From the IMG/VR virus record IMGVR_UViG_3300033273_000833, positions 64,001 through 128,000 of that record: a stretch of DNA of 64,000 nt; one strand, 5' to 3'. The notes under the pieces were generated by a model that worked only from the letters and a program-made list of their open reading frames with translations, ran no database searches and was not told where the DNA came from. Below, one piece after another: positions 14,943-24,028 of this stretch. A program made the position numbers and the translations under genes. Position 1 is the first letter of the stretch. Each line of letters opens with the position of its first letter. This DNA is from a virus (taxonomy: Duplodnaviria; Caudoviricetes).

Positions 14943-15103
14943 ACAAACAAAAAGCATTATTAATTAAAAAATTAATTTCTTACGATGGCTCATCAGCCGA
15001 ACATAAAAGAGTTTTTAAAAAATTAAAGAAAAAGTACAACAAATTATCTAAATCAGAAAAGATTAAATTATTAGAAGATATAGAATCTACATTTAAAGAT
15101 TAA
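14939..15103 (+). CDS. small basic hypothetical protein (54 aa)
   Basis: MNKQKALLIKKLISYDG...ESTFKD*; ATGA overlap with guaC; converges on the gpJ stop. Confidence 0.55.
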   Translation: MNKQKALLIKKLISYDGSSAEHKRVFKKLKKKYNKLSKSEKIKLLEDIESTFKD

Positions 15104-18100
15104 GATATGCCATCAGGTTCAATCCTATACCATATACCATTAACTTCTATGTGAAGATTACCGTCTTCGACTTTTAATCTTGAATTTCCAGATATAACTA
15201 AATTTTGGGTAAAGCCCGTATCTTGTATTTTATTATCAAAAATAGTTGTGTTATTCAAAGCTTCGTCTATTTTACCAGATATCCCTTCTCCCTCAGAAAA
15301 GTAAGTTGACATCGGGGAATTACCGATAGTAGGTTCTTGCGAAAAGTTTACTATTTCCCCAGCCTCAAAACCATTTGTTTTAATTGTTGATCCAGAAATA
15401 ATTCCTCCTTGACCATCATAATCTCCATCATCGCCAGGTACGCACCTGATATTCATTCCTTTAACATTAACAAAAAAGTCTAACATATCACTATCAATTG
15501 ACCCGCTAGTTAAGGCAAAATTATTAGAACTATCACCTTCTCCTAATAAATCACTAAATGTTTTATTGCTTAAGTTTTCAATATCAAACTGTCCAATTCC
15601 TATAGGAGTGCCTTGATATGCAGTTTTAGATGCCAAGGGATACTTAACAAAAGAATCTGGATCAGAACTAACTCCATCAGAACTACTCCAAGTCTTTGTT
15701 CCTCCTATAATTATTCCTTCTCTAAACTGTTTCATCCCTACAATTCTCTCATCTCCAAAAGTGTTCATAAACACATGTCCCAACTCCTCAACTGAACTTT
15801 CTTCATCCTCAACACCTTCGCTTAGATCTGCCAACTCATCTTGAGGAGCAATCATAAAACCTGTTACTCCAAAATCAAAAACGGTATTATCAAGAAGAGT
15901 AACTTTATCAATTTCACTCAATAAAGAATTTTTCCATACGAAACTTTCGAATACTTTAACTTTCAAAAAATAATCTCTGTCATAATTAATTCCACCATTT
16001 TCCAAACTAGCGTCATAAGGAATTATTAGCTTATCACTACCATCTTTCTGTTGAATAGCTAAGGTTTCAGACAATTCAAAATCTGGATTATTTTTATTAG
16101 CATATAGTATAGCGTATCCAACAGTTTGCTTCTGGGAATATCTACTTGAGTCAGCTAATGATGGATTATGATAGGATCCAGATATATTTAAATTCATAGA
16201 GTCGAACGCCATTAACGTATTTGATCCAGCATCATCAGGTCTATTTTTTTGTAGAGCAGCTTTATTTGTATCATTAAATTCTACGTCGCTTGTTGTCCAG
16301 GAACCCAACTCTTCCAGCATAGCAGAATCTTCAATACCGTCTTGTTTCCAGAAATTTACTGCAGAGAAGTTTGCAAAATGAGTTACAGCCAAAATTTTAG
16401 TAAAATTATTAAAGCCATTTGACCCATAATCTTCCCAGGTTTGAGCTATCTGTTTAATTTGATCAAAAGAATATGTTTTATATGGGTAATTTTGATTATG
16501 GAATTGATTTACTTTTAAAGATTGAATTGTCAAATTTTTTATTTGATCCCAATATGCTAGCGCATCATCCAATGAATAAATTCTACTTGGGATATTGCTA
16601 TTCAAAGCCATTTCTGCCTGATAATCAAACCTTGCCCCTTCTGGAATATCTCCATGCGAAGCTGTTTCTGTATGAACATCGTTTCCATCATCATCAGTAG
16701 TTATAATTTTGATTTTTTGATCTTGATTTAAATCTAAAAATACTTCATCTGAGGGGATCCATTCTGGCAAAATTGAAGTTATTGACCCAGTAAATATTGT
16801 AGGTGCGTCGTAAAGTATAAATGTTTGGACTGAAGAATATCTTTTTTGGTTTCCAGCTTTTGCAATTGCTTGGATAACAACTGCTATACCTCTTTGATCT
16901 TGTAAGTTTGAATATTTAAAAGAAACACTACCCTGATCGTCTACAACTGTTTCAAACCTTATATCGTATGAAAAGCTGTAATCCAGCCTTTTGTATAAAT
17001 TGCTTTCATCATAAATCCATTGAGTTTGAGAGGTTACAGGGACTCCAGCTGTTTGAGCGCTAGATGCTCCAGATCTATCAACTGGACACAACCCAATTTT
17101 AAACCCTTCAAAATATGGACTACTGGAATTAAGCATTGACGAAGAGGTATAGGTTGTAGTTAAACTATCTATATCTCTGTATTCCCAGGTTAAATTATAA
17201 GAAGGAGAGTTTTGTTCTATTTTTGCATAATTACCAACCCAACCATCAGGAGCGAAATTGCTAATAACAGGAGGTCCACTACTGTACGTTGAGTCAGATA
17301 GAACTGCAGATAAAATTCCTGAAGCAGAAGTCTTAGACTTTCCTGTACTCTTTTCAGTTCCTGAAGTGGTAACCAATAAAGACCATGTACCTGTTGCTGC
17401 GGAAGAATTTTTTGCCACCGAAGTCGTTATTGAAAAAACTTTACTCCCCCCACCGTTTCTGGAAGAACTATTATGAGTAGTTTGATCTCCTGTTGGAGAT
17501 ATTAATATTATATTATTTGTTATGTTATTAAAGAGGGATTCGTCTACAGTTGTTGTAAATTTTACATCGAAAGTTAAGGTAGAGTTTGACTTAGCTTTAA
17601 ATTTTTCAACGATAGGCGGTGTGATATTTGCTGAAGCCTGAGATGTGCCAACTGATATATCATAGTCTGAAGTTATTATTGGGAATGTTTGATCCATTGA
17701 AGATAGTTTTTCTTCATCAAAAAATACTGCAATAATTTTATATTTACCCTCTCCTTCTTCTTCGATTGCCTGTATTCTATATTTTCGCTCTCTCCAGTCC
17801 GTACCATATTGGCCTCCATCTTCAGGATTAATTAAAGCCCAGTCAGTACCTTTCAGAATAACTTTGTATGAATTATCATAACTTTCAAGAATTGATGTAG
17901 TGAATTTTATAAAATTTCCATTAATGTCTTTTACTTTTATCTTGTTAGTAACAGCGGAACCTCCATCAGCAGGAAATACTGAGCCTTTAATTCTCTGGCT
18001 TTTATTCAAGTCTCGAATATCTTGACTACTTACAGAACCTTTTTCATCTAAAAAGTCTACATCATAATTTGGATCAATATTTCCTAGAATTATATCAAAG

Positions 18101-20835
18101 TAATTCGATTGCCTTGAATTTGGGTCGTAAGCTTTGAGAGATATAGGTTGAGTAAGTACCAGAGTTTCATCGCCTTCGACATCAATTACTTTTCCTATTG
18201 ATTGGTTCGTGTTCTTCAAAGTGTCTGTAACACTGATAATGTTTCCAGGTTTTAAAAACAAAGCTCTATAATCAGTACTAAAAGTAATTGTTTCTGTATT
18301 TACAGAAGAAGTCAGGAAAAACCATCTACCCATTCTTCTGGCCTGACCTCTAGAGGTACACCCCAATGGCTCAATATTTTTCCGAATGACTCCTAATTCT
18401 TTAACCCCCTGCTTATCTTCAACATATTCGTATTTTTTTCGAAAATTATCTTTCTTGTCCATATAGCCTACTCGAGCCACCGTATATCGCGTTGACTTAG
18501 AAGAAGTATAATACGAAAATACTCCTCCTTCTACATTTGTATTTGAAAAATTAATAGATGGTTCATCTACTTGAACACCAGGAACCTTATTCCAATATTT
18601 TTGCCAATTATTATCAACCCCAGGCCTAATTCCAGTTCCGCCAGTAGCGGTTTTTTTGAAAAAATTAAATGTAGATGCAGGAAACTCTACAACATCCCCT
18701 ATAGAATATGAAGTGCCTCCAGAGAAGCTTACATAACTAACGGTATTACTTCCGCCGTCAAGGGAAATAGAAACACCTCTGCCGTCCCAATATGCTATAC
18801 CATGAAATGTTTCAGCTATAGTTTTTAATAGCTGATAAGCTTCTTCTTCTTCGCTTATAATTACATTCATAGTGTATCTAGGCTCTTTACCGTTGTAAGT
18901 GTCATCGACGCCAACAAAATTACCTGAATCATTGACAGCGTCGCAGTATCTACCAATTTTATATAGTGTCCATTTATCAATTTTATCAATATCTAAATAT
19001 GCCCCAATTCCATATCTATTATTAATCATCAAATCATATAAAACCCACGCAGGATTATCAGACCATTCATATTTAAACGTTCCATCCCAGTTTCCGCTGT
19101 ATACATTTCCTCCGACAAATCTATTATCAGGAGTATAATTAGATGGAATTAATATTTTTTTAAGTCGTAGATGATAACTTCTTTCTGGCTTATCTTGAAA
19201 ATACCTTGAATTAAAAGATTGCTGAATAATTGCACTAAATGGGTATGACATTTTTTCGTCAATGATTTCAGTAACACTATCTAATGTAATTTTTGCAGAC
19301 ATTATAGGAGATATAATTTCTCTACCCGTTTTAGTGACTTTAATATATCTAGTTTTTCCAGCAATAGCTGGCGGCATCCTGAAACAATTAAAAGCATTAT
19401 TAGCATCAGTAATTGGCATAAAGAATGTTTCCAAACCTTCTTCATAATATTGCCTCATTCCTGAATCTTGTCCAAATTGACGAAATCTATTTAATCCTAA
19501 AGCTGGTTCATCGCTAGAAGGTGCGAACGTATGAGGGATAGCTTGATCAGGAGTAACTCCTTCTAGAGCTTCTGCATCAAATACCTCAGCTGGATTCCCT
19601 CCAGTTTCAATATCTCGCATTCCGTTATCAAAATCCGAATCCTCTCCAAATATAATTTCACCACTGTCTCCAAAACTAGCCCTACCTACATCAATTAAAT
19701 AACTTGAACCTTGAACCAGGCCTTGAATGAAATAATTTCTACTTATCGATTTCCTAGGAGCACCTCCAACTTGAGAAATTCCATGATATGCAAGCCATTG
19801 AGTAAACTCTAAAGAATTAGCTTCTTGATCAGTTAAACCGTTAATTCCTATTTCTACCTGAAAACCTATTTTATGTTCTCTTGCAGTTGTCATTAAACCT
19901 ACTTTACCACCCCCTGCTCCATGATCAACAGTATCTTTTAAGTCGTCAACGGATATTGTAATATAGGCAAAATCAACCTCAGGATTTGTGATGGTGTGAG
20001 ATACGGGAAAAGCGCCTTCTGAAAATTCTGCATGACCTGCGCTCCATGAAGTAAAATTTCTTACACTTGTATGAGTTCTTATATCTGAACCATGTTGTAC
20101 TTCGCTAGCTGCATACCCATATTTTATCGCTTCATCCAACCCTGCGGATGTACCAAGAAAATAACCTATGTAAGATCCGTTTTTTGCAAACCAATTCGCA
20201 GTATTAAAGTCGGACTTGACTGCCGTTTGACCCTCTTGCTTCATTAGATTAAGCATTGTTTTAAAATTTGGCGTCCCTCCTCCATATAGTATAGAAGCTC
20301 CATCTTCACCAGTACCCATATTAGGGCCGACCAAGCTTTGCTTAATAGATTGAGTATTATATATTTTACTCCTAGACCACGTATCTCTACTTGGGTCTAT
20401 GCCTTTATGGTTTCCAGGGCTCCAGTTTAAAGCAAGTTTTCTATAATTATATGTGCCATTTTCATTCTGAACCGCAGTCCCGTTAAAATATATTCCTTTA
20501 GCAATTTCTGTCCCAGACGCCAAGCTACCATCTGGTTTACAAAAGCCCTCTATAGGTCCTTCACAAATTAAATCTACAACTTCAGACTGAGAAAAACTCT
20601 GCAAAGCATTTTCGTCAGGAGCAGGAGGCTTTAGCAATGGGGTGGGAGGAGAGCCTTTTCCTTTTCCTCCTCCTTCTCCAGAAACTAAAGGTACGACTAT
20701 AAATTTATCCTCTTGTTCTAAAATTTTACATGGATATATATTATGCTTTATATAAAACTTTAATTCCTCCAAGCTTTTGTAAACCCTTTTACCAAGAGTT
20801 TTATTTAAAATTCCATGAAATTTTACGTTTATCAT
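15100..20835 (-). CDS. tail tip / host-specificity protein J (central tail fibre) with an N-terminal ubiquitin-like extension
   Basis: VVDLICEGPIEG, YPFSA..FNSRYF..R.YHLRLKKI, WSDNPAWVLYDL..RYGIG, CDA..EPRYTMN, GCTSRGQARRMGRW..E.ITF. Confidence 0.92.
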   Translation of the reverse strand: MINVKFHGILNKTLGKRVYKSLEELKFYIKHNIYPCKILEQEDKFIVVPLVSGEGGGKGKGSPPTPLLKPPAPDENALQSFSQSEVVDLICEGPIEGFCKPDGSLASGTEIAKGIYFNGTAVQNENGTYNYRKLALNWSPGNHKGIDPSRDTWSRSKIYNTQSIKQSLVGPNMGTGEDGASILYGGGTPNFKTMLNLMKQEGQTAVKSDFNTANWFAKNGSYIGYFLGTSAGLDEAIKYGYAASEVQHGSDIRTHTSVRNFTSWSAGHAEFSEGAFPVSHTITNPEVDFAYITISVDDLKDTVDHGAGGGKVGLMTTAREHKIGFQVEIGINGLTDQEANSLEFTQWLAYHGISQVGGAPRKSISRNYFIQGLVQGSSYLIDVGRASFGDSGEIIFGEDSDFDNGMRDIETGGNPAEVFDAEALEGVTPDQAIPHTFAPSSDEPALGLNRFRQFGQDSGMRQYYEEGLETFFMPITDANNAFNCFRMPPAIAGKTRYIKVTKTGREIISPIMSAKITLDSVTEIIDEKMSYPFSAIIQQSFNSRYFQDKPERSYHLRLKKILIPSNYTPDNRFVGGNVYSGNWDGTFKYEWSDNPAWVLYDLMINNRYGIGAYLDIDKIDKWTLYKIGRYCDAVNDSGNFVGVDDTYNGKEPRYTMNVIISEEEEAYQLLKTIAETFHGIAYWDGRGVSISLDGGSNTVSYVSFSGGTSYSIGDVVEFPASTFNFFKKTATGGTGIRPGVDNNWQKYWNKVPGVQVDEPSINFSNTNVEGGVFSYYTSSKSTRYTVARVGYMDKKDNFRKKYEYVEDKQGVKELGVIRKNIEPLGCTSRGQARRMGRWFFLTSSVNTETITFSTDYRALFLKPGNIISVTDTLKNTNQSIGKVIDVEGDETLVLTQPISLKAYDPNSRQSNYFDIILGNIDPNYDVDFLDEKGSVSSQDIRDLNKSQRIKGSVFPADGGSAVTNKIKVKDINGNFIKFTTSILESYDNSYKVILKGTDWALINPEDGGQYGTDWRERKYRIQAIEEEGEGKYKIIAVFFDEEKLSSMDQTFPIITSDYDISVGTSQASANITPPIVEKFKAKSNSTLTFDVKFTTTVDESLFNNITNNIILISPTGDQTTHNSSSRNGGGSKVFSITTSVAKNSSAATGTWSLLVTTSGTEKSTGKSKTSASGILSAVLSDSTYSSGPPVISNFAPDGWVGNYAKIEQNSPSYNLTWEYRDIDSLTTTYTSSSMLNSSSPYFEGFKIGLCPVDRSGASSAQTAGVPVTSQTQWIYDESNLYKRLDYSFSYDIRFETVVDDQGSVSFKYSNLQDQRGIAVVIQAIAKAGNQKRYSSVQTFILYDAPTIFTGSITSILPEWIPSDEVFLDLNQDQKIKIITTDDDGNDVHTETASHGDIPEGARFDYQAEMALNSNIPSRIYSLDDALAYWDQIKNLTIQSLKVNQFHNQNYPYKTYSFDQIKQIAQTWEDYGSNGFNNFTKILAVTHFANFSAVNFWKQDGIEDSAMLEELGSWTTSDVEFNDTNKAALQKNRPDDAGSNTLMAFDSMNLNISGSYHNPSLADSSRYSQKQTVGYAILYANKNNPDFELSETLAIQQKDGSDKLIIPYDASLENGGINYDRDYFLKVKVFESFVWKNSLLSEIDKVTLLDNTVFDFGVTGFMIAPQDELADLSEGVEDEESSVEELGHVFMNTFGDERIVGMKQFREGIIIGGTKTWSSSDGVSSDPDSFVKYPLASKTAYQGTPIGIGQFDIENLSNKTFSDLLGEGDSSNNFALTSGSIDSDMLDFFVNVKGMNIRCVPGDDGDYDGQGGIISGSTIKTNGFEAGEIVNFSQEPTIGNSPMSTYFSEGEGISGKIDEALNNTTIFDNKIQDTGFTQNLVISGNSRLKVEDGNLHIEVNGIWYRIEPDGIS

Positions 20836-21326
20836 CTAAATAAATTTCTATTCCATGTTTGATTGCCGATTACATAGCTACCAACCCTGAGCCTACCATA
20901 GGCAACAGGCACAGGCTTACCTTGTTTTTCAACATTTGTTTCTCCTCTAAAAGAGTAAGATTCAGTTTTAGCGGATTGAGTTGAAGCATTATCCATTTCG
21001 GGGGCTTGAACTGAATTAGCTGCCATAATTACGCTTACGCCAATTGAGACAAGAAGTCCTACAAAAAACCAAAAAAGCCCACCTTTAGCTGCAGGCAATA
21101 TGTCTATTCTTTTTATATTTTTTTTATTAGCATTCTCTAGAGACAAAACTTTTCCATCTATCAAAATCACAAATTCCATTTGATCAAAATTTTTAGCTAA
21201 AAAAGTCATAAAATTACCTTCTACGGCATCTATAGCTTTAAGAACGTCTTTCGCAGATGAAATTTCGAATTCATATTTTTCTTGAAAACGCTCCTCAAAT
21301 ATTCCATGCATATATACCTCAACCAT
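20832..21326 (-). CDS. tail assembly protein I (lambda gpI-like)
   Basis: N-terminal beta-grasp-like domain ending ILPAAKGG, hydrophobic segment, SYSFRG..QGKPVPVAYGRLRVGSYVI. Confidence 0.88.
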   Translation of the reverse strand: MVEVYMHGIFEERFQEKYEFEISSAKDVLKAIDAVEGNFMTFLAKNFDQMEFVILIDGKVLSLENANKKNIKRIDILPAAKGGLFWFFVGLLVSIGVSVIMAANSVQAPEMDNASTQSAKTESYSFRGETNVEKQGKPVPVAYGRLRVGSYVIGNQTWNRNLFR

Positions 21327-21690
21327 TAATCAGTCCTTTTATTTTATCAATTTTATGTTTCTTGCATAAATCAGGAAAAAATACTTCAAATTTATCTTCT
21401 TCATTTATATACAAAACATTGGGCAGGCAATTGATTCTCGAAACTATTTTATCAGCTTCGGAAAAAGATTCTGCATTAGGGTGGCTATGGTATATCGCTA
21501 AAATTTCTGAGCTTAATTTAGTCTCTAAATATGCCTCTGGATGTATTTCAAATTTGGTCTTGGGGGTGGAGGATACATTCTTGCATTCTTTTGCAGATAT
21601 TTCTCCATCAACCTCAACAATAAATCCGCAAATTTCTTCTGAAATTTTACTTAAAGCATGCGTTTTAATTCTTTTAAGCGTCTGATCCAT
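21319..21690 (-). CDS. tail assembly protein K-like JAB/MPN+ metalloprotease (no NlpC/P60 domain)
   Basis: EEICGFI..FEIHPEAY..YHSHP..FSEAD; position between gpL and gpI. Confidence 0.85.
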   Translation of the reverse strand: MDQTLKRIKTHALSKISEEICGFIVEVDGEISAKECKNVSSTPKTKFEIHPEAYLETKLSSEILAIYHSHPNAESFSEADKIVSRINCLPNVLYINEEDKFEVFFPDLCKKHKIDKIKGLING

Positions 21691-22873
21691 ATCCTTCTGT
21701 AGCTGGAAAACCTCCGAATCGTAAATTTTTATTTTTTGTGTACCCAGATCTAAATCTCATTCTGCAAGCATCTACGCTTTTTGAGCATTGATCAGCAACC
21801 CAATTTCCACTTTTTTTCTCAGGAGCATTACTTAAACTAGATAAATGAGCACTCACACAAACCCACACAGTTAAGTCGTGTTTTTTACTTATTTTTCCAG
21901 ATACAAGAGTAATTTGTTTTGTACCCTCCATAAAACCCCCTCCTTCAGAAGAAGGTGGCGTTTTAACAACTGTACCAACCTCATAATTAACCCCAGCAGC
22001 CCAATCTGAAATCGTAGCTGTATAATCTTTTTCTCCTATCACCGAAGAACCTCCATTGCTTGGAGTTCTTAATGCGTTTAATCTCCCTAATCCTGCGGCA
22101 TTTTCATAAGACTCTGTTTGTCCAAGCATAAAGTTTTTTTCATCTAATTCTGTAGCTATTGGAGGTCCAGTAAAGTAACAACCTTCGCCCCTATAACACC
22201 ATGAGCAATAACTACCCAATATAGTTCTATTTGGTATAGTTACATTTTCTACATCTAAAGAAGAGGTTAACTCATACTCCACAGATTCTTTTGTTTCGTT
22301 AGCTTTTTTTGATATAAAGTATAATTCCGAAGAAAATTCGTAAGCAGAATCTGTTTCTGAGCCAGCGCCAGCATTTCTGGTTCCCCAAGGATTTTTGTTG
22401 CCGTTTTCAGGAAAGTTGTCCCCGTCTAAAAACTTAGCAAAAACTCGCCTCCTTACAACTCTAGCATTAGTCATATCATTAAAGTACTTATTATATGTAG
22501 ATATAGTTTCTAACACAGTACCCTTGTGATTTGTATCCTGCACAGCGTTTGCGATTTCTTTATTTGATATTGTTAACAAAGGTCTAGGAAGACCTTGAGA
22601 AGAAGATGCAAAATTTGCAGACCTAATACCTATAGGTAGATATGAAAAACCAGCCCAATTTAACCCTTTTTCTTGCATATGATCTGCTGTGACTGCCGTG
22701 ATTTCAGACAAGTTATCTACAGAACATAACCTTAGTGCGTAATTTCGATTATCATATACATCAACATCTTGATATCCTTCCAAGTAATATATTTCATACA
22801 AAGACAATAAAGCCGTTGGCGACAAGCCGAATGCTTGCTCCATGTTTAATCCTTGTTTTTGATAATCTTCCAT
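21674..22873 (-). CDS. minor tail protein L (lambda gpL-like, Cys cluster)
   Basis: PRPLLTISN, RRRVFAKFLD, VEYELTSSLD, YCSWCYRGEGC, DQCSKSVDACRMRF..FGGFP. Confidence 0.9.
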   Translation of the reverse strand: MEDYQKQGLNMEQAFGLSPTALLSLYEIYYLEGYQDVDVYDNRNYALRLCSVDNLSEITAVTADHMQEKGLNWAGFSYLPIGIRSANFASSSQGLPRPLLTISNKEIANAVQDTNHKGTVLETISTYNKYFNDMTNARVVRRRVFAKFLDGDNFPENGNKNPWGTRNAGAGSETDSAYEFSSELYFISKKANETKESVEYELTSSLDVENVTIPNRTILGSYCSWCYRGEGCYFTGPPIATELDEKNFMLGQTESYENAAGLGRLNALRTPSNGGSSVIGEKDYTATISDWAAGVNYEVGTVVKTPPSSEGGGFMEGTKQITLVSGKISKKHDLTVWVCVSAHLSSLSNAPEKKSGNWVADQCSKSVDACRMRFRSGYTKNKNLRFGGFPATEGYGSDA

Positions 22874-22886
22874 ATAATTATTTACA

Positions 22887-23633
22887 CTATAGTTTAAAAT
22901 TATAAGTTATTGAAATTCCTTGTTTTATATTATTTATTCTATGCCACCAAAACCTAGGTATATTTAAACTTTCGTTTTCATTTAATATTATTATATTATA
23001 TTTTATATTGTTTTTAATTAAAATCTCGGAAATTTTTGTTTTAGAATACATAGCTCCAGAATGTTTTAAATCAGAACTTTCTATAAAGTTATTATATTGA
23101 GGATCAATCAACAAGACTTCTTTTCTACCACTTATAACGCTTAGTAGGGAATGTGCTATCGGCTTCTTATAAAAGTTTTCCTTGTGAATTTGCTTAAGAG
23201 TTTGATCAATTTTATAACTATAGGAATCGTAATGCAACGGAGTGATAGTGCCCTTTCCTCCCCACCAGAATGATATTCCGCCCTCTTTACCAAAATTGTA
23301 TTTATTGACTATTTCTTTTTCGAACTCTAAAATTTTTTCAGGATCAACAAAGCCAAAAGGATTTTCCGAGCGCAGATAATATTTATTATTTTTTTTATTC
23401 ATATACTCTTTAACATATTGCTCTATAGTAATTTCAATACAATTCATTTCTTGTAAATTTGATATTTGCCTACCTTCTATTATTTCTGGCACAATAACCT
23501 TGAGTCGCCCATATTTCTTTAATATATTATCGACATTAATAATTTTACTTAATCCAAAATCATAACTTAAAAAAAATGGGTTATTCTCCTTAAACAAATC
23601 TGTAATATTGTCAATATTTTCTACATGCAACAT
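22887..23633 (-). CDS. JmjC/cupin-like Fe(II)/2OG-dependent hydroxylase
   Basis: FWWGGKGTITPLHYD..SGRKEVLL..LNIPRFWWHRINN..ISITY (HxD...H triad). Confidence 0.85.
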   Translation of the reverse strand: MLHVENIDNITDLFKENNPFFLSYDFGLSKIINVDNILKKYGRLKVIVPEIIEGRQISNLQEMNCIEITIEQYVKEYMNKKNNKYYLRSENPFGFVDPEKILEFEKEIVNKYNFGKEGGISFWWGGKGTITPLHYDSYSYKIDQTLKQIHKENFYKKPIAHSLLSVISGRKEVLLIDPQYNNFIESSDLKHSGAMYSKTKISEILIKNNIKYNIIILNENESLNIPRFWWHRINNIKQGISITYNFKL

Positions 23634-23636
23634 GCT

Positions 23637-23948
23637 TTATTTTAGTCTATTTAATATTTTTCTCAATACAAAAGACTGATTATTATAATTAATTAATTCT
23701 ATCTGCAAATTACTTTTGCGACGCGGGCCTATATAAAAACCTTGAACCTCATCTCTACTCACCATAGCGTCAACAAAATCATATGAATTATTTTGTTTTA
23801 ACCAAGACCAATATAGATCAATTTCTTTTTCGCAACATTCTACAAAAACATTTTTGTTTAAAAAACATTTTGCATATAAACTAATGTCCCTAAAACAATA
23901 CACCTGACTAGGAGGAGCGGTCAAACTACCATCTATAATCAAATCCAT
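23637..23948 (-). CDS. hypothetical protein
   Basis: MDLIIDGSLTAPPS...; ATG at 23948 preferred over the TTG at 23966. Confidence 0.6.
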   Translation of the reverse strand: MDLIIDGSLTAPPSQVYCFRDISLYAKCFLNKNVFVECCEKEIDLYWSWLKQNNSYDFVDAMVSRDEVQGFYIGPRRKSNLQIELINYNNQSFVLRKILNRLK

Positions 23949-24028
23949 ATTTTTTTTTACACTCAAACAACTAAAATTTTTTTTCGACGGATTTTTGAAT
24001 CACAGTGGACGATATACAAAAATAATAC

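Follow-up and report, generated by a model that had tools for sequence, protein, structure and literature searches.

The central tail fiber protein gpJ of a marine phage carries a 53-residue N-terminal leader that was very probably derived from a ubiquitin-like (Ubl) domain of the type found in the neighboring tail protein gpI. The genes concerned are located in a 64,000-nucleotide stretch of DNA (the window, in whose numbering coordinates are given unless a locus is named), comprising positions 64,001 to 128,000 of the IMG/VR virus record IMGVR_UViG_3300033273_000833. The whole record of 203,067 bases was rated complete by CheckV. Related contigs of 188 to 198 kb originate from metagenomes, with Tara as one source, and the clade consists of marine phages with genomes of approximately 200 kb; no close cultured phage was identified among the phage records searched with gpJ and gpI using tblastn. 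Four overlapping genes, in the order gpL-gpK-gpI-gpJ, run entirely on the minus strand, and gpI and gpK adjoin the leader-bearing gpJ in every relative. There is about an even chance that in this lambda-type tail-tip module two subunits, gpI and gpJ, are made as precursors with N-terminal Ubl domains that are trimmed by gpK, a stand-alone JAB metalloprotease.

The termini of the leader are as the original prediction had described them: gpJ starts with MINVKFHGIL, the leader ends in FIVVPLVSG (G53), and EGGGKGKGSPP...VVDLICEGPIEG, the canonical Gly-rich gpJ N-terminus, follows. This is the region where matches begin both to gpJ proteins of cultured phages (from about residue 72 using tblastn) and to PHROG tail-fiber profiles (phrog_1727, phrog_31, and phrog_2589, from residues 48 to 55), and gpJ contains the canonical G-K-G ... 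[D/E]L[I]xEGPIxG motif, which is also present near the N-terminus of other gpJ relatives. The ATG of gpJ overlaps the gpI stop codon as ATGA, and this overlap is conserved. The leader is common to nine database homologs, with 47 to 86% identity across the leader itself (alignment A2) and 49 to 91% across residues 1 to 160, and was also found in 14 IMG/VR loci; the gpJ homologs are 1911 to 2017 amino acids in length and lie on contigs of up to 195 kb. M1, G8, P49, and G53 are invariant across 10 homologs and the IMG/VR loci of the clade. The last two belong to the leader tail, where an [ILV]-x-P-x-x-x motif precedes the conserved glycine, itself three to four residues ahead of the canonical N-terminus. 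Across the 53 leader codons the ratio of nonsynonymous to synonymous substitution rates (dN/dS) was 0.09 to 0.20, with dS at about 1 to 2 and saturated. The sole other candidate start is a TTG at L22, after which no ATG, GTG, or TTG occurs before the canonical N-terminus. Given the conserved sequence, the low dN/dS, and the lack of an alternative start codon, the leader is translated and under selection; it is a real coding sequence under purifying selection. When 1.84 billion representative proteins were searched with a profile of the leader, it was returned from its own clade only, apart from three low-complexity matches, and a tblastn search of 50,697 phage records with gpJ residues 1 to 150 identified no recognizable leader in cultured phages, with matches only from residue 72.

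The gpI sequence likewise agreed exactly with the residues predicted, as the open reading frame translation starts with MVEVYMHGIF and its first domain ends in IDILPAAKGG (G82 and G83), directly followed by a hydrophobic stretch. A start at Met6 was considered and rejected, since position 6 is Leu in most homologs whereas M1 is invariant. The proposed beta-grasp fold of gpI residues 1 to 83 was recovered with AlphaFold2 (residues 1 to 84 modeled; predicted local distance difference test [pLDDT] score, 90.5; predicted template modeling score, 0.79), with elements in the order b1, short helix, b2, a1, a2, b3, b4, b5. Using Foldseek, the top 50 rows for this model were all of the MoaD, ubiquitin, or SUMO type, including TA0895 (probability, 1.00; template modeling [TM] score, 0.66) and MoaD 1fm0_D (TM score, 0.65), with weak E values (0.01 or higher). 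P78 and G82 are invariant across an alignment of 28 gpI Ubl domains. The C-terminal part of gpI was matched by phmmer to residues 135 to 206 of lambda gpI (8iyk) and to other solved tail assembly proteins, and the full length of gpI was covered by tblastn in 149 phage records. Tandem gpI duplicates, each with its own Ubl and plug domain, are present in related loci L001 (4968-5489 and 5486-6004) and L017 (2324 and 2899), which represent one sub-branch of the leader-bearing clade, and likewise in L028 and L030 (1640 and 2260), where they are of independent origin in a lineage that bears a Hint domain in gpJ.

The paralogy that had been proposed between the leader and the gpI domain emerged only at the profile level, in hhalign comparisons against diverse gpI Ubl domains. 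For a broader Ubl profile, 80 gpJ loci from IMG/VR were used, yielding 37 distinct gpI sequences from many lineages. Against the gpI Ubl domains of its own clade only, the leader aligned over 16 columns (P of 0.005; probability, 7%), whereas against 28 gpI Ubl domains (alignment A4) the probability was 93.7%, with a P of 2e-7. With the 26 gpI Ubl domains from outside the clade, the probability was 93%, the P 3.4e-7, and the score 37.1, compared with 10.3 ± 1.9 (maximum, 16.5) in 150 column shuffles and 11.1 for the reversed profile. The strongest part of the match is leader residues 1 to 21, M-x-x-V-x-[FL]-[HY]-G-x-L-x-K-x-[LF]-G-K, which correspond to the first strand and short helix of the gpI Ubl. 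Aligned globally, the two domains are collinear at both ends, with P49 placed on P78 and G53 on G82, and the C-terminal half of the leader alone aligns to the last 13 Ubl columns with a score of 18.9 (9.6 ± 2.1 in the control). The leader retains both domain ends and lacks about 30 central residues of the gpI Ubl. It is closer to the general gpI consensus than the resident gpI is; thus, it is not a recent copy of the neighboring gene.

As predicted, gpK is a JAB-only protein without an NlpC/P60 domain: it matches Prok-JAB only (34 bits against a cutoff of 25), and its E, HSH, S, and D residues are intact. An alignment of 26 JAB domains shows no variation at E19, H68, H70, S77, or D80, and the best solved relative by sequence is Pyrococcus furiosus JAMM1 (5lda). 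It is the sole JAB protein encoded in the 203-kb genome, in which no NlpC/P60 domain (PF00877) was detected anywhere. JAB-only tail proteins are not rare, as they make up phrog_2635, and about 30 of the 78 JAB open reading frames in the related loci are 105 to 140 amino acids in length. The JAB motif of the clade, HSH-x6-S-x2-D (HSHPNAESFSEAD; 21451-21489, minus strand), has a spacing one residue shorter than that of other aligned gpK sequences, and Phe replaces the usual Pro before Ser. A related-locus search with gpK alone as the query returned nothing. No E1 (ThiF-like, PF00899) is encoded in the phage genome, which indicates a fused pro-domain system, and a ubiquitin-like conjugation system of the Bil (bacterial ISG15-like) or CBASS-Cap2 type was rejected on this basis.

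To model the complex, gpK (26-row alignment) was supplied together with Zn and gpJ residues 1 to 70 (10 rows) in three runs, alongside three controls. The model scored 0.68 (0.68, 0.49, and 0.70 in the individual runs), while the best of the controls scored 0.00; for comparison, 58 of 80 solved complexes and 2 of 110 mismatched pairs attained this score. The runs share at least 76% of contacts, and the pLDDT of the partner was at least 74. Leader residues 46 and 48 to 56 contact the JAB groove, with 48 to 56 running along JAB residues 45 to 49, so that the tail P49 to G53 lies in the active-site groove and G53 touches JAB residues 79 and 80; all five catalytic residues are within the modeled interface. 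This geometry matches that of known JAMM-Ubl complexes, and the passing score may in part reflect recall of, or likeness to, solved complexes such as 5lda. The model supports binding, not cleavage, and on its strength the leader probably binds gpK. The Ubl-JAB pairing put forward in the original prediction stands as far as the gpI beta-grasp, the leader as its shortened relative, the intact JAB site, and the modeled tail in the groove are concerned; we infer binding in vivo, cleavage, the exact bond, and a purpose such as masking or solubilizing the subunits until assembly.

The following sequence of events is envisaged. In gpI, a full MoaD-like beta-grasp is fused straight to the hydrophobic helices and plug domain, and gpJ would have acquired a cut-down 53-residue copy of the same domain type, joined three to four residues before the G-K-G motif that aligns with M-G-K-G of lambda. 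Docked on each Ubl, gpK would fit the extended tail [ILV]-P-x-x-x-G lengthwise into its substrate groove and cut after the conserved glycine, which would be G53 in gpJ and either G82 or G83 in gpI. Cleavage would free the hydrophobic segment of gpI and the Gly-rich N-terminus of gpJ for incorporation into the tip, with the Ubl pieces and gpK remaining outside the virion. For gpJ, it is an evenly balanced proposition, though the most likely mechanism, that gpK cleaves the leader and that the cut falls after G53. It is plausible that a bulky addition at the gpJ N-terminus is something to be removed.

A different removable module was identified at the same position in gpJ proteins of other marine phages. 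In about 20 of the 80 related loci, the Gly-rich N-terminus of gpJ contains a Hint domain just upstream of the GGKGG motif, with Pfam Hint and PT-HINT above cutoff (L068, 2979-3650; L030, 2934-3650; L057, from 2991; L075, from 3081; and about 16 more among L028 to L083). In L068 the region reads ...GGGGGGG/CFLGHTL...TFIAGGIRVHN/AGLG...GGGKGGG (slashes mark the boundaries of the domain). Cys1 and His-Asn flank these Hint domains, with Ala or Gly at the +1 position, where the splicing nucleophile would stand; on these residues the domains look like self-cleaving BIL-type domains, not splicing inteins, and should cleave themselves out rather than splice. As with the leader, a removable module would be present here, but in the Hint-bearing phages (L028, L030, L057, L068, L075, and others) it is predicted to be self-cleaving, with no separate protease needed, and these phages keep a gpK with JAB and NlpC/P60 domains and a normal gpI. 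By analogy, removable modules at this position of gpJ appear to have arisen at least twice, which supports the interpretation of the leader as a pro-domain. More tentatively, and with somewhat less than an even chance, a stand-alone JAB serves an assembly checkpoint by stripping Ubl pro-domains from both gpI and gpJ, a self-cleaving Hint domain takes this place in sister lineages, and both answer a general need to unmask the gpJ N-terminus.

The strongest alternative, which is less probable than cleavage yet merits serious consideration, is that the leader is a gpI-type Ubl remnant kept on mature gpJ as a docking handle, with nothing cut at G53. The handle could recruit gpK, as a binding chaperone and not as a protease for the leader, or could recruit gpI or gpL to the gpJ trimer. 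This explanation shares the homology and the complex-model evidence, as a binding model cannot separate docking from catalysis, and lambda gpK is needed for assembly, whatever its chemistry. Two considerations weigh against processing: JAB cleavage of a phage Ubl is a prediction only, for lambda gpK as well, and other gpJ relatives tolerate 5 to 60 extra N-terminal residues without an obvious processing device, several of them with uncleavable-looking extensions of 20 to 60 residues, so removal of the leader may not be obligatory. Against a retained handle, the catalytic residues of gpK are invariant across 26 relatives, arguing for an active enzyme, and the invariant leader residues P49 and G53 cluster at the would-be cleavage tail. 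The junction also falls exactly at the canonical gpJ N-terminus, and in lambda gpJ's N-terminal region is part of a composite domain with gpL.

Whether the leader is a Ubl domain at all was weighed against a second and unlikely alternative, namely, that it is a small alpha/beta domain of unrelated origin, POTRA-like or otherwise, that resembles the gpI Ubl by convergence or chance, is unconnected with gpK, and serves some other function, for example in adhesion or trimer nucleation. The AlphaFold2 model of the leader (pLDDT, 79) contains b1 (residues 4 to 6), helices at 9 to 13 and 22 to 30, and strands at 36 to 40 and 45 to 49, with a disordered tail from residue 54. Elements in common with the gpI Ubl are b1, the short helix at 9 to 13, a single main helix, and the final strand plus tail. 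Using VIA-align, the best matches were Protein L (Z score, 4.0), GB1 (3.6), and MoaD (3.6), and the neighbors also included Urm1, SAMP1, and ubiquitin. A structure search of the Atlas returned a MoaD/ThiS cluster (TM score, 0.59) and a 211-amino-acid viral protein (TM score, 0.56) among mixed rows, and an ESM Atlas feature search gave no usable match. As to the original prediction that gpJ residues 1 to 55 form a beta-grasp, the model is compatible with a minimal beta-grasp of GB1 size, truncated at best, and structural matches were weak, while the corresponding claim for gpI held.

Several results count against a Ubl origin of the leader, and most are equally what an unrelated domain would give. 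The model has only three DSSP strands and no b2, its b-a-a-b-b order equals that of POTRA domains, and a Foldseek search of the PDB produced no match, the top rows being unrelated GTPases. VIA-align Z scores reached only 3 to 4, and POTRA domains score as high as beta-grasps (Z scores of 3.5 to 4.0, with POTRA at 3.8; POTRA chains, 3.3 to 3.8, are level with MoaD). At the sequence level, no alignment was obtained between gpI residues 1 to 83 and gpJ residues 1 to 58 using BLASTP. When the phage genome was searched by HMMER with the gpI Ubl profile, gpI alone was found and the leader was missed. Among 10 leaders scanned against Pfam at E values of up to 10 there was no ThiS, MoaD (PF02597), or ubiquitin family, and a profile search of PDB sequences yielded no MoaD or ubiquitin chain; nothing below an E value of 0.07 was found in PHROGs with the leader alone. 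The confinement of the leader to its own clade in the whole-library profile search would also fit an unrelated domain. In addition, the leader alignment is shallow (10 rows from a single clade), its first 19 to 21 residues carry most of the hhalign signal, and its end has one conserved Gly and not Gly-Gly. An unrelated domain does not readily explain a profile-profile score about 14 standard deviations above shuffles in a match that begins at residue 1 of both domains, the second, independent match at the extreme C-terminal end, the placement of the leader tail in the JAB groove in a controlled complex model, or the constant adjacency of gpI and gpK.

Far less probable is a counter-defense role, in which the main task of the JAB protein would be to remove host Bil-type Ubl tags from gpJ, with the leader as a decoy for the tagged region or its shield. 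Bil conjugates the central tail fiber with a Ubl, and counteraction by deubiquitinase (DUB) domains of phage tails has been put forward as speculation (Hor et al., preprint, 2023; 10.1101/2023.09.04.556158). Nothing in the window bears on such a role, the phage is uncultured, tail modules that pair a JAB with a Ubl extend far beyond the known Bil hosts, and gpK is indispensable to lambda assembly although no Bil is involved; a counter-defense role is nonetheless compatible with a maturation role, and the two are not exclusive. That the gpJ extension is an annotation artifact, with translation actually starting further downstream and the 159 bases left as an untranslated open spacer, is scarcely credible, because the lack of an obvious Shine-Dalgarno sequence ahead of the ATG at 20835 and the GGAGG-rich stretch within gpJ codons 53 to 57, whose bases merely encode the Gly run, are set against the conserved ATGA overlap, the codon-level conservation, and the missing alternative start codons described above. 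A miscalled gpJ start was rejected on the last two of these grounds.

Features of the tail-tip module in the window
Feature	Position	Strand	Basis or remark
gpL, tail-tip hub protein, 399 aa	21674..22873	-	Pfam Phage_tail_L, E 8e-32; phrog_18; overlaps gpK start
gpK, stand-alone JAB/MPN+ metalloprotease, 123 aa	21319..21690	-	Prok-JAB match
gpK catalytic codons	E19 21634-21636; H68 21487-21489; H70 21481-21483; S77 21460-21462; D80 21451-21453	-	
gpI, 164 aa	20832..21326	-	Open reading frame
gpI residues 1-83, ubiquitin-like (MoaD-like beta-grasp) domain ending G82-G83	21078..21326	-	AlphaFold2, Foldseek
gpI residues 84-164, hydrophobic helix region (84-103) and TAPI-C plug domain	20835..21077	-	phrog_32, E 2e-20
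gpJ residues 1-53, leader, probable truncated gpI-type ubiquitin-like domain ending P49-L-V-S-G53	20677..20835	-	Conservation, hhalign
gpJ residues 54-97, canonical Gly-rich N-terminus EGGGKGKG...VVDLICEGPIEG	20545..20676	-	PHROG tail-fiber profiles
gpJ, central tail fiber/tip attachment protein, 1911 aa including leader	15100..20835	-	Pfam Phage-tail_3 (PF13550), E 2e-12

Comparison with the lambda/T1-type trio (TAPK, TAPI, and TAPJ) revealed the same L-K-I-J gene order, the same gpI architecture of a ThiS/MoaD-like Ubl with a conserved Gly at its end, then a hydrophobic region, then the plug domain, and the same full E/HxH/S/D JAB site in gpK, with the same predicted cut after the Ubl glycine. 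TAPK, however, combines JAB with NlpC/P60, whereas the gpK described here is JAB only; gpJ has a truncated Ubl of its own in addition, the genome size is approximately 200 kb, and the module stands apart from other recognizable tail genes. Iyer, Burroughs, and Aravind (2006; PMC1779556) described the gpI Ubl, which ends in a conserved glycine, and the JAB domain in gpK, predicted JAB cleavage after that glycine to release the Ubl, and noted that gpI is fused to gpJ or gpK in some cases. In these TAPI-TAPJ prophage fusions a gpI-type Ubl is likewise N-terminal on a polypeptide running into gpJ, but the whole gpI (Ubl and TAPI-C) is fused and no separate gpI is left, whereas here a 53-residue Ubl remnant alone directly precedes the canonical start of gpJ, alongside one or two complete gpI genes. 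Residues 63 to 150 of gpI and 48 to 142 of gpJ match adjacent profile positions of PHROG 31 ('central tail fiber J'), which seems to include gpI-gpJ fusions. In cryo-electron microscopy (cryo-EM) of lambda, the visible part of gpI starts at residue 101 or 134 and plugs the gpJ lumen; its N-terminal domain has never been seen in lambda virions, and gpK is absent from them.

Prokaryotic JAMM-Ubl pairs offer a second comparison, and these include Mec+/CysO and QbsD/QbsE. As in P. furiosus JAMM1-SAMP2 (5lda) and Haloferax HvJAMM1-SAMP1 (PMC4443979), the enzyme is a minimal stand-alone JAMM of about 120 to 140 amino acids; in such pairs the JAMM recognizes a MoaD-like beta-grasp and cuts at its C-terminal glycine, which is the activity predicted here. 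They act in sulfur-carrier or SAMPylation pathways with an E1, whereas this phage encodes none and its Ubl is a putative cis-fused pro-domain on structural proteins. The Bil system (10.1101/2023.09.04.556158) is host encoded, uses E1 and E2, and attaches a Ubl through an isopeptide bond to block assembly; in contrast, the Ubl of this phage is phage encoded and genetically fused at the N-terminus, and it is presumably part of normal assembly.

Outside the four genes, the module (15100-23966 plus flanks) is isolated, as no recognizable tape-measure or distal-tail gene adjoins it. The flanks are transcribed divergently, with a UvdE-like gene and a dCMP deaminase gene on one side and opposite-strand genes on the other. 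Immediately upstream of gpL, in the same orientation, is a gene for a 248-amino-acid protein (22887-23633, minus strand), whose counterpart is called as Cupin_8 (JmjC-like) in L003 and is not present in L001; this protein might be a candidate protein hydroxylase tied to the tail-tip module. The gpL protein exceeds that of lambda (232 amino acids), with about 150 additional C-terminal residues, and retains a Cys-rich stretch (CSWCYRGEGC ... C...C) resembling the Fe-S site of lambda.

JAB processing of the gpI Ubl and gpI-gpJ fusions (both 2006) and the anti-Bil idea (2023) are not new. What is new is a shortened leader, made up of the Ubl alone and joined directly to the canonical gpJ N-terminus beside a separate, intact gpI, together with its setting of a JAB-only gpK in a clade of marine phages of approximately 200 kb. 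The roles of the gpK JAB and the gpI Ubl in lambda-type tail assembly have stood as a prediction since 2006, and recent cryo-EM leaves the removal of the gpI N-terminal domain undecided. This clade provides a clean test case, combining a minimal 123-residue JAB protein without a second peptidase domain, two candidate substrates, and a predicted gpJ cleavage product recognizable as the canonical gpJ N-terminus. If the leader is cleaved as proposed, this would be a virus that uses Ubl pro-domains and a DUB-type enzyme to mature its structural proteins, and the central tail fiber itself would be the substrate of a phage-encoded deubiquitinase-type protease, giving context to the host Bil systems that tag the same protein with Ubls.

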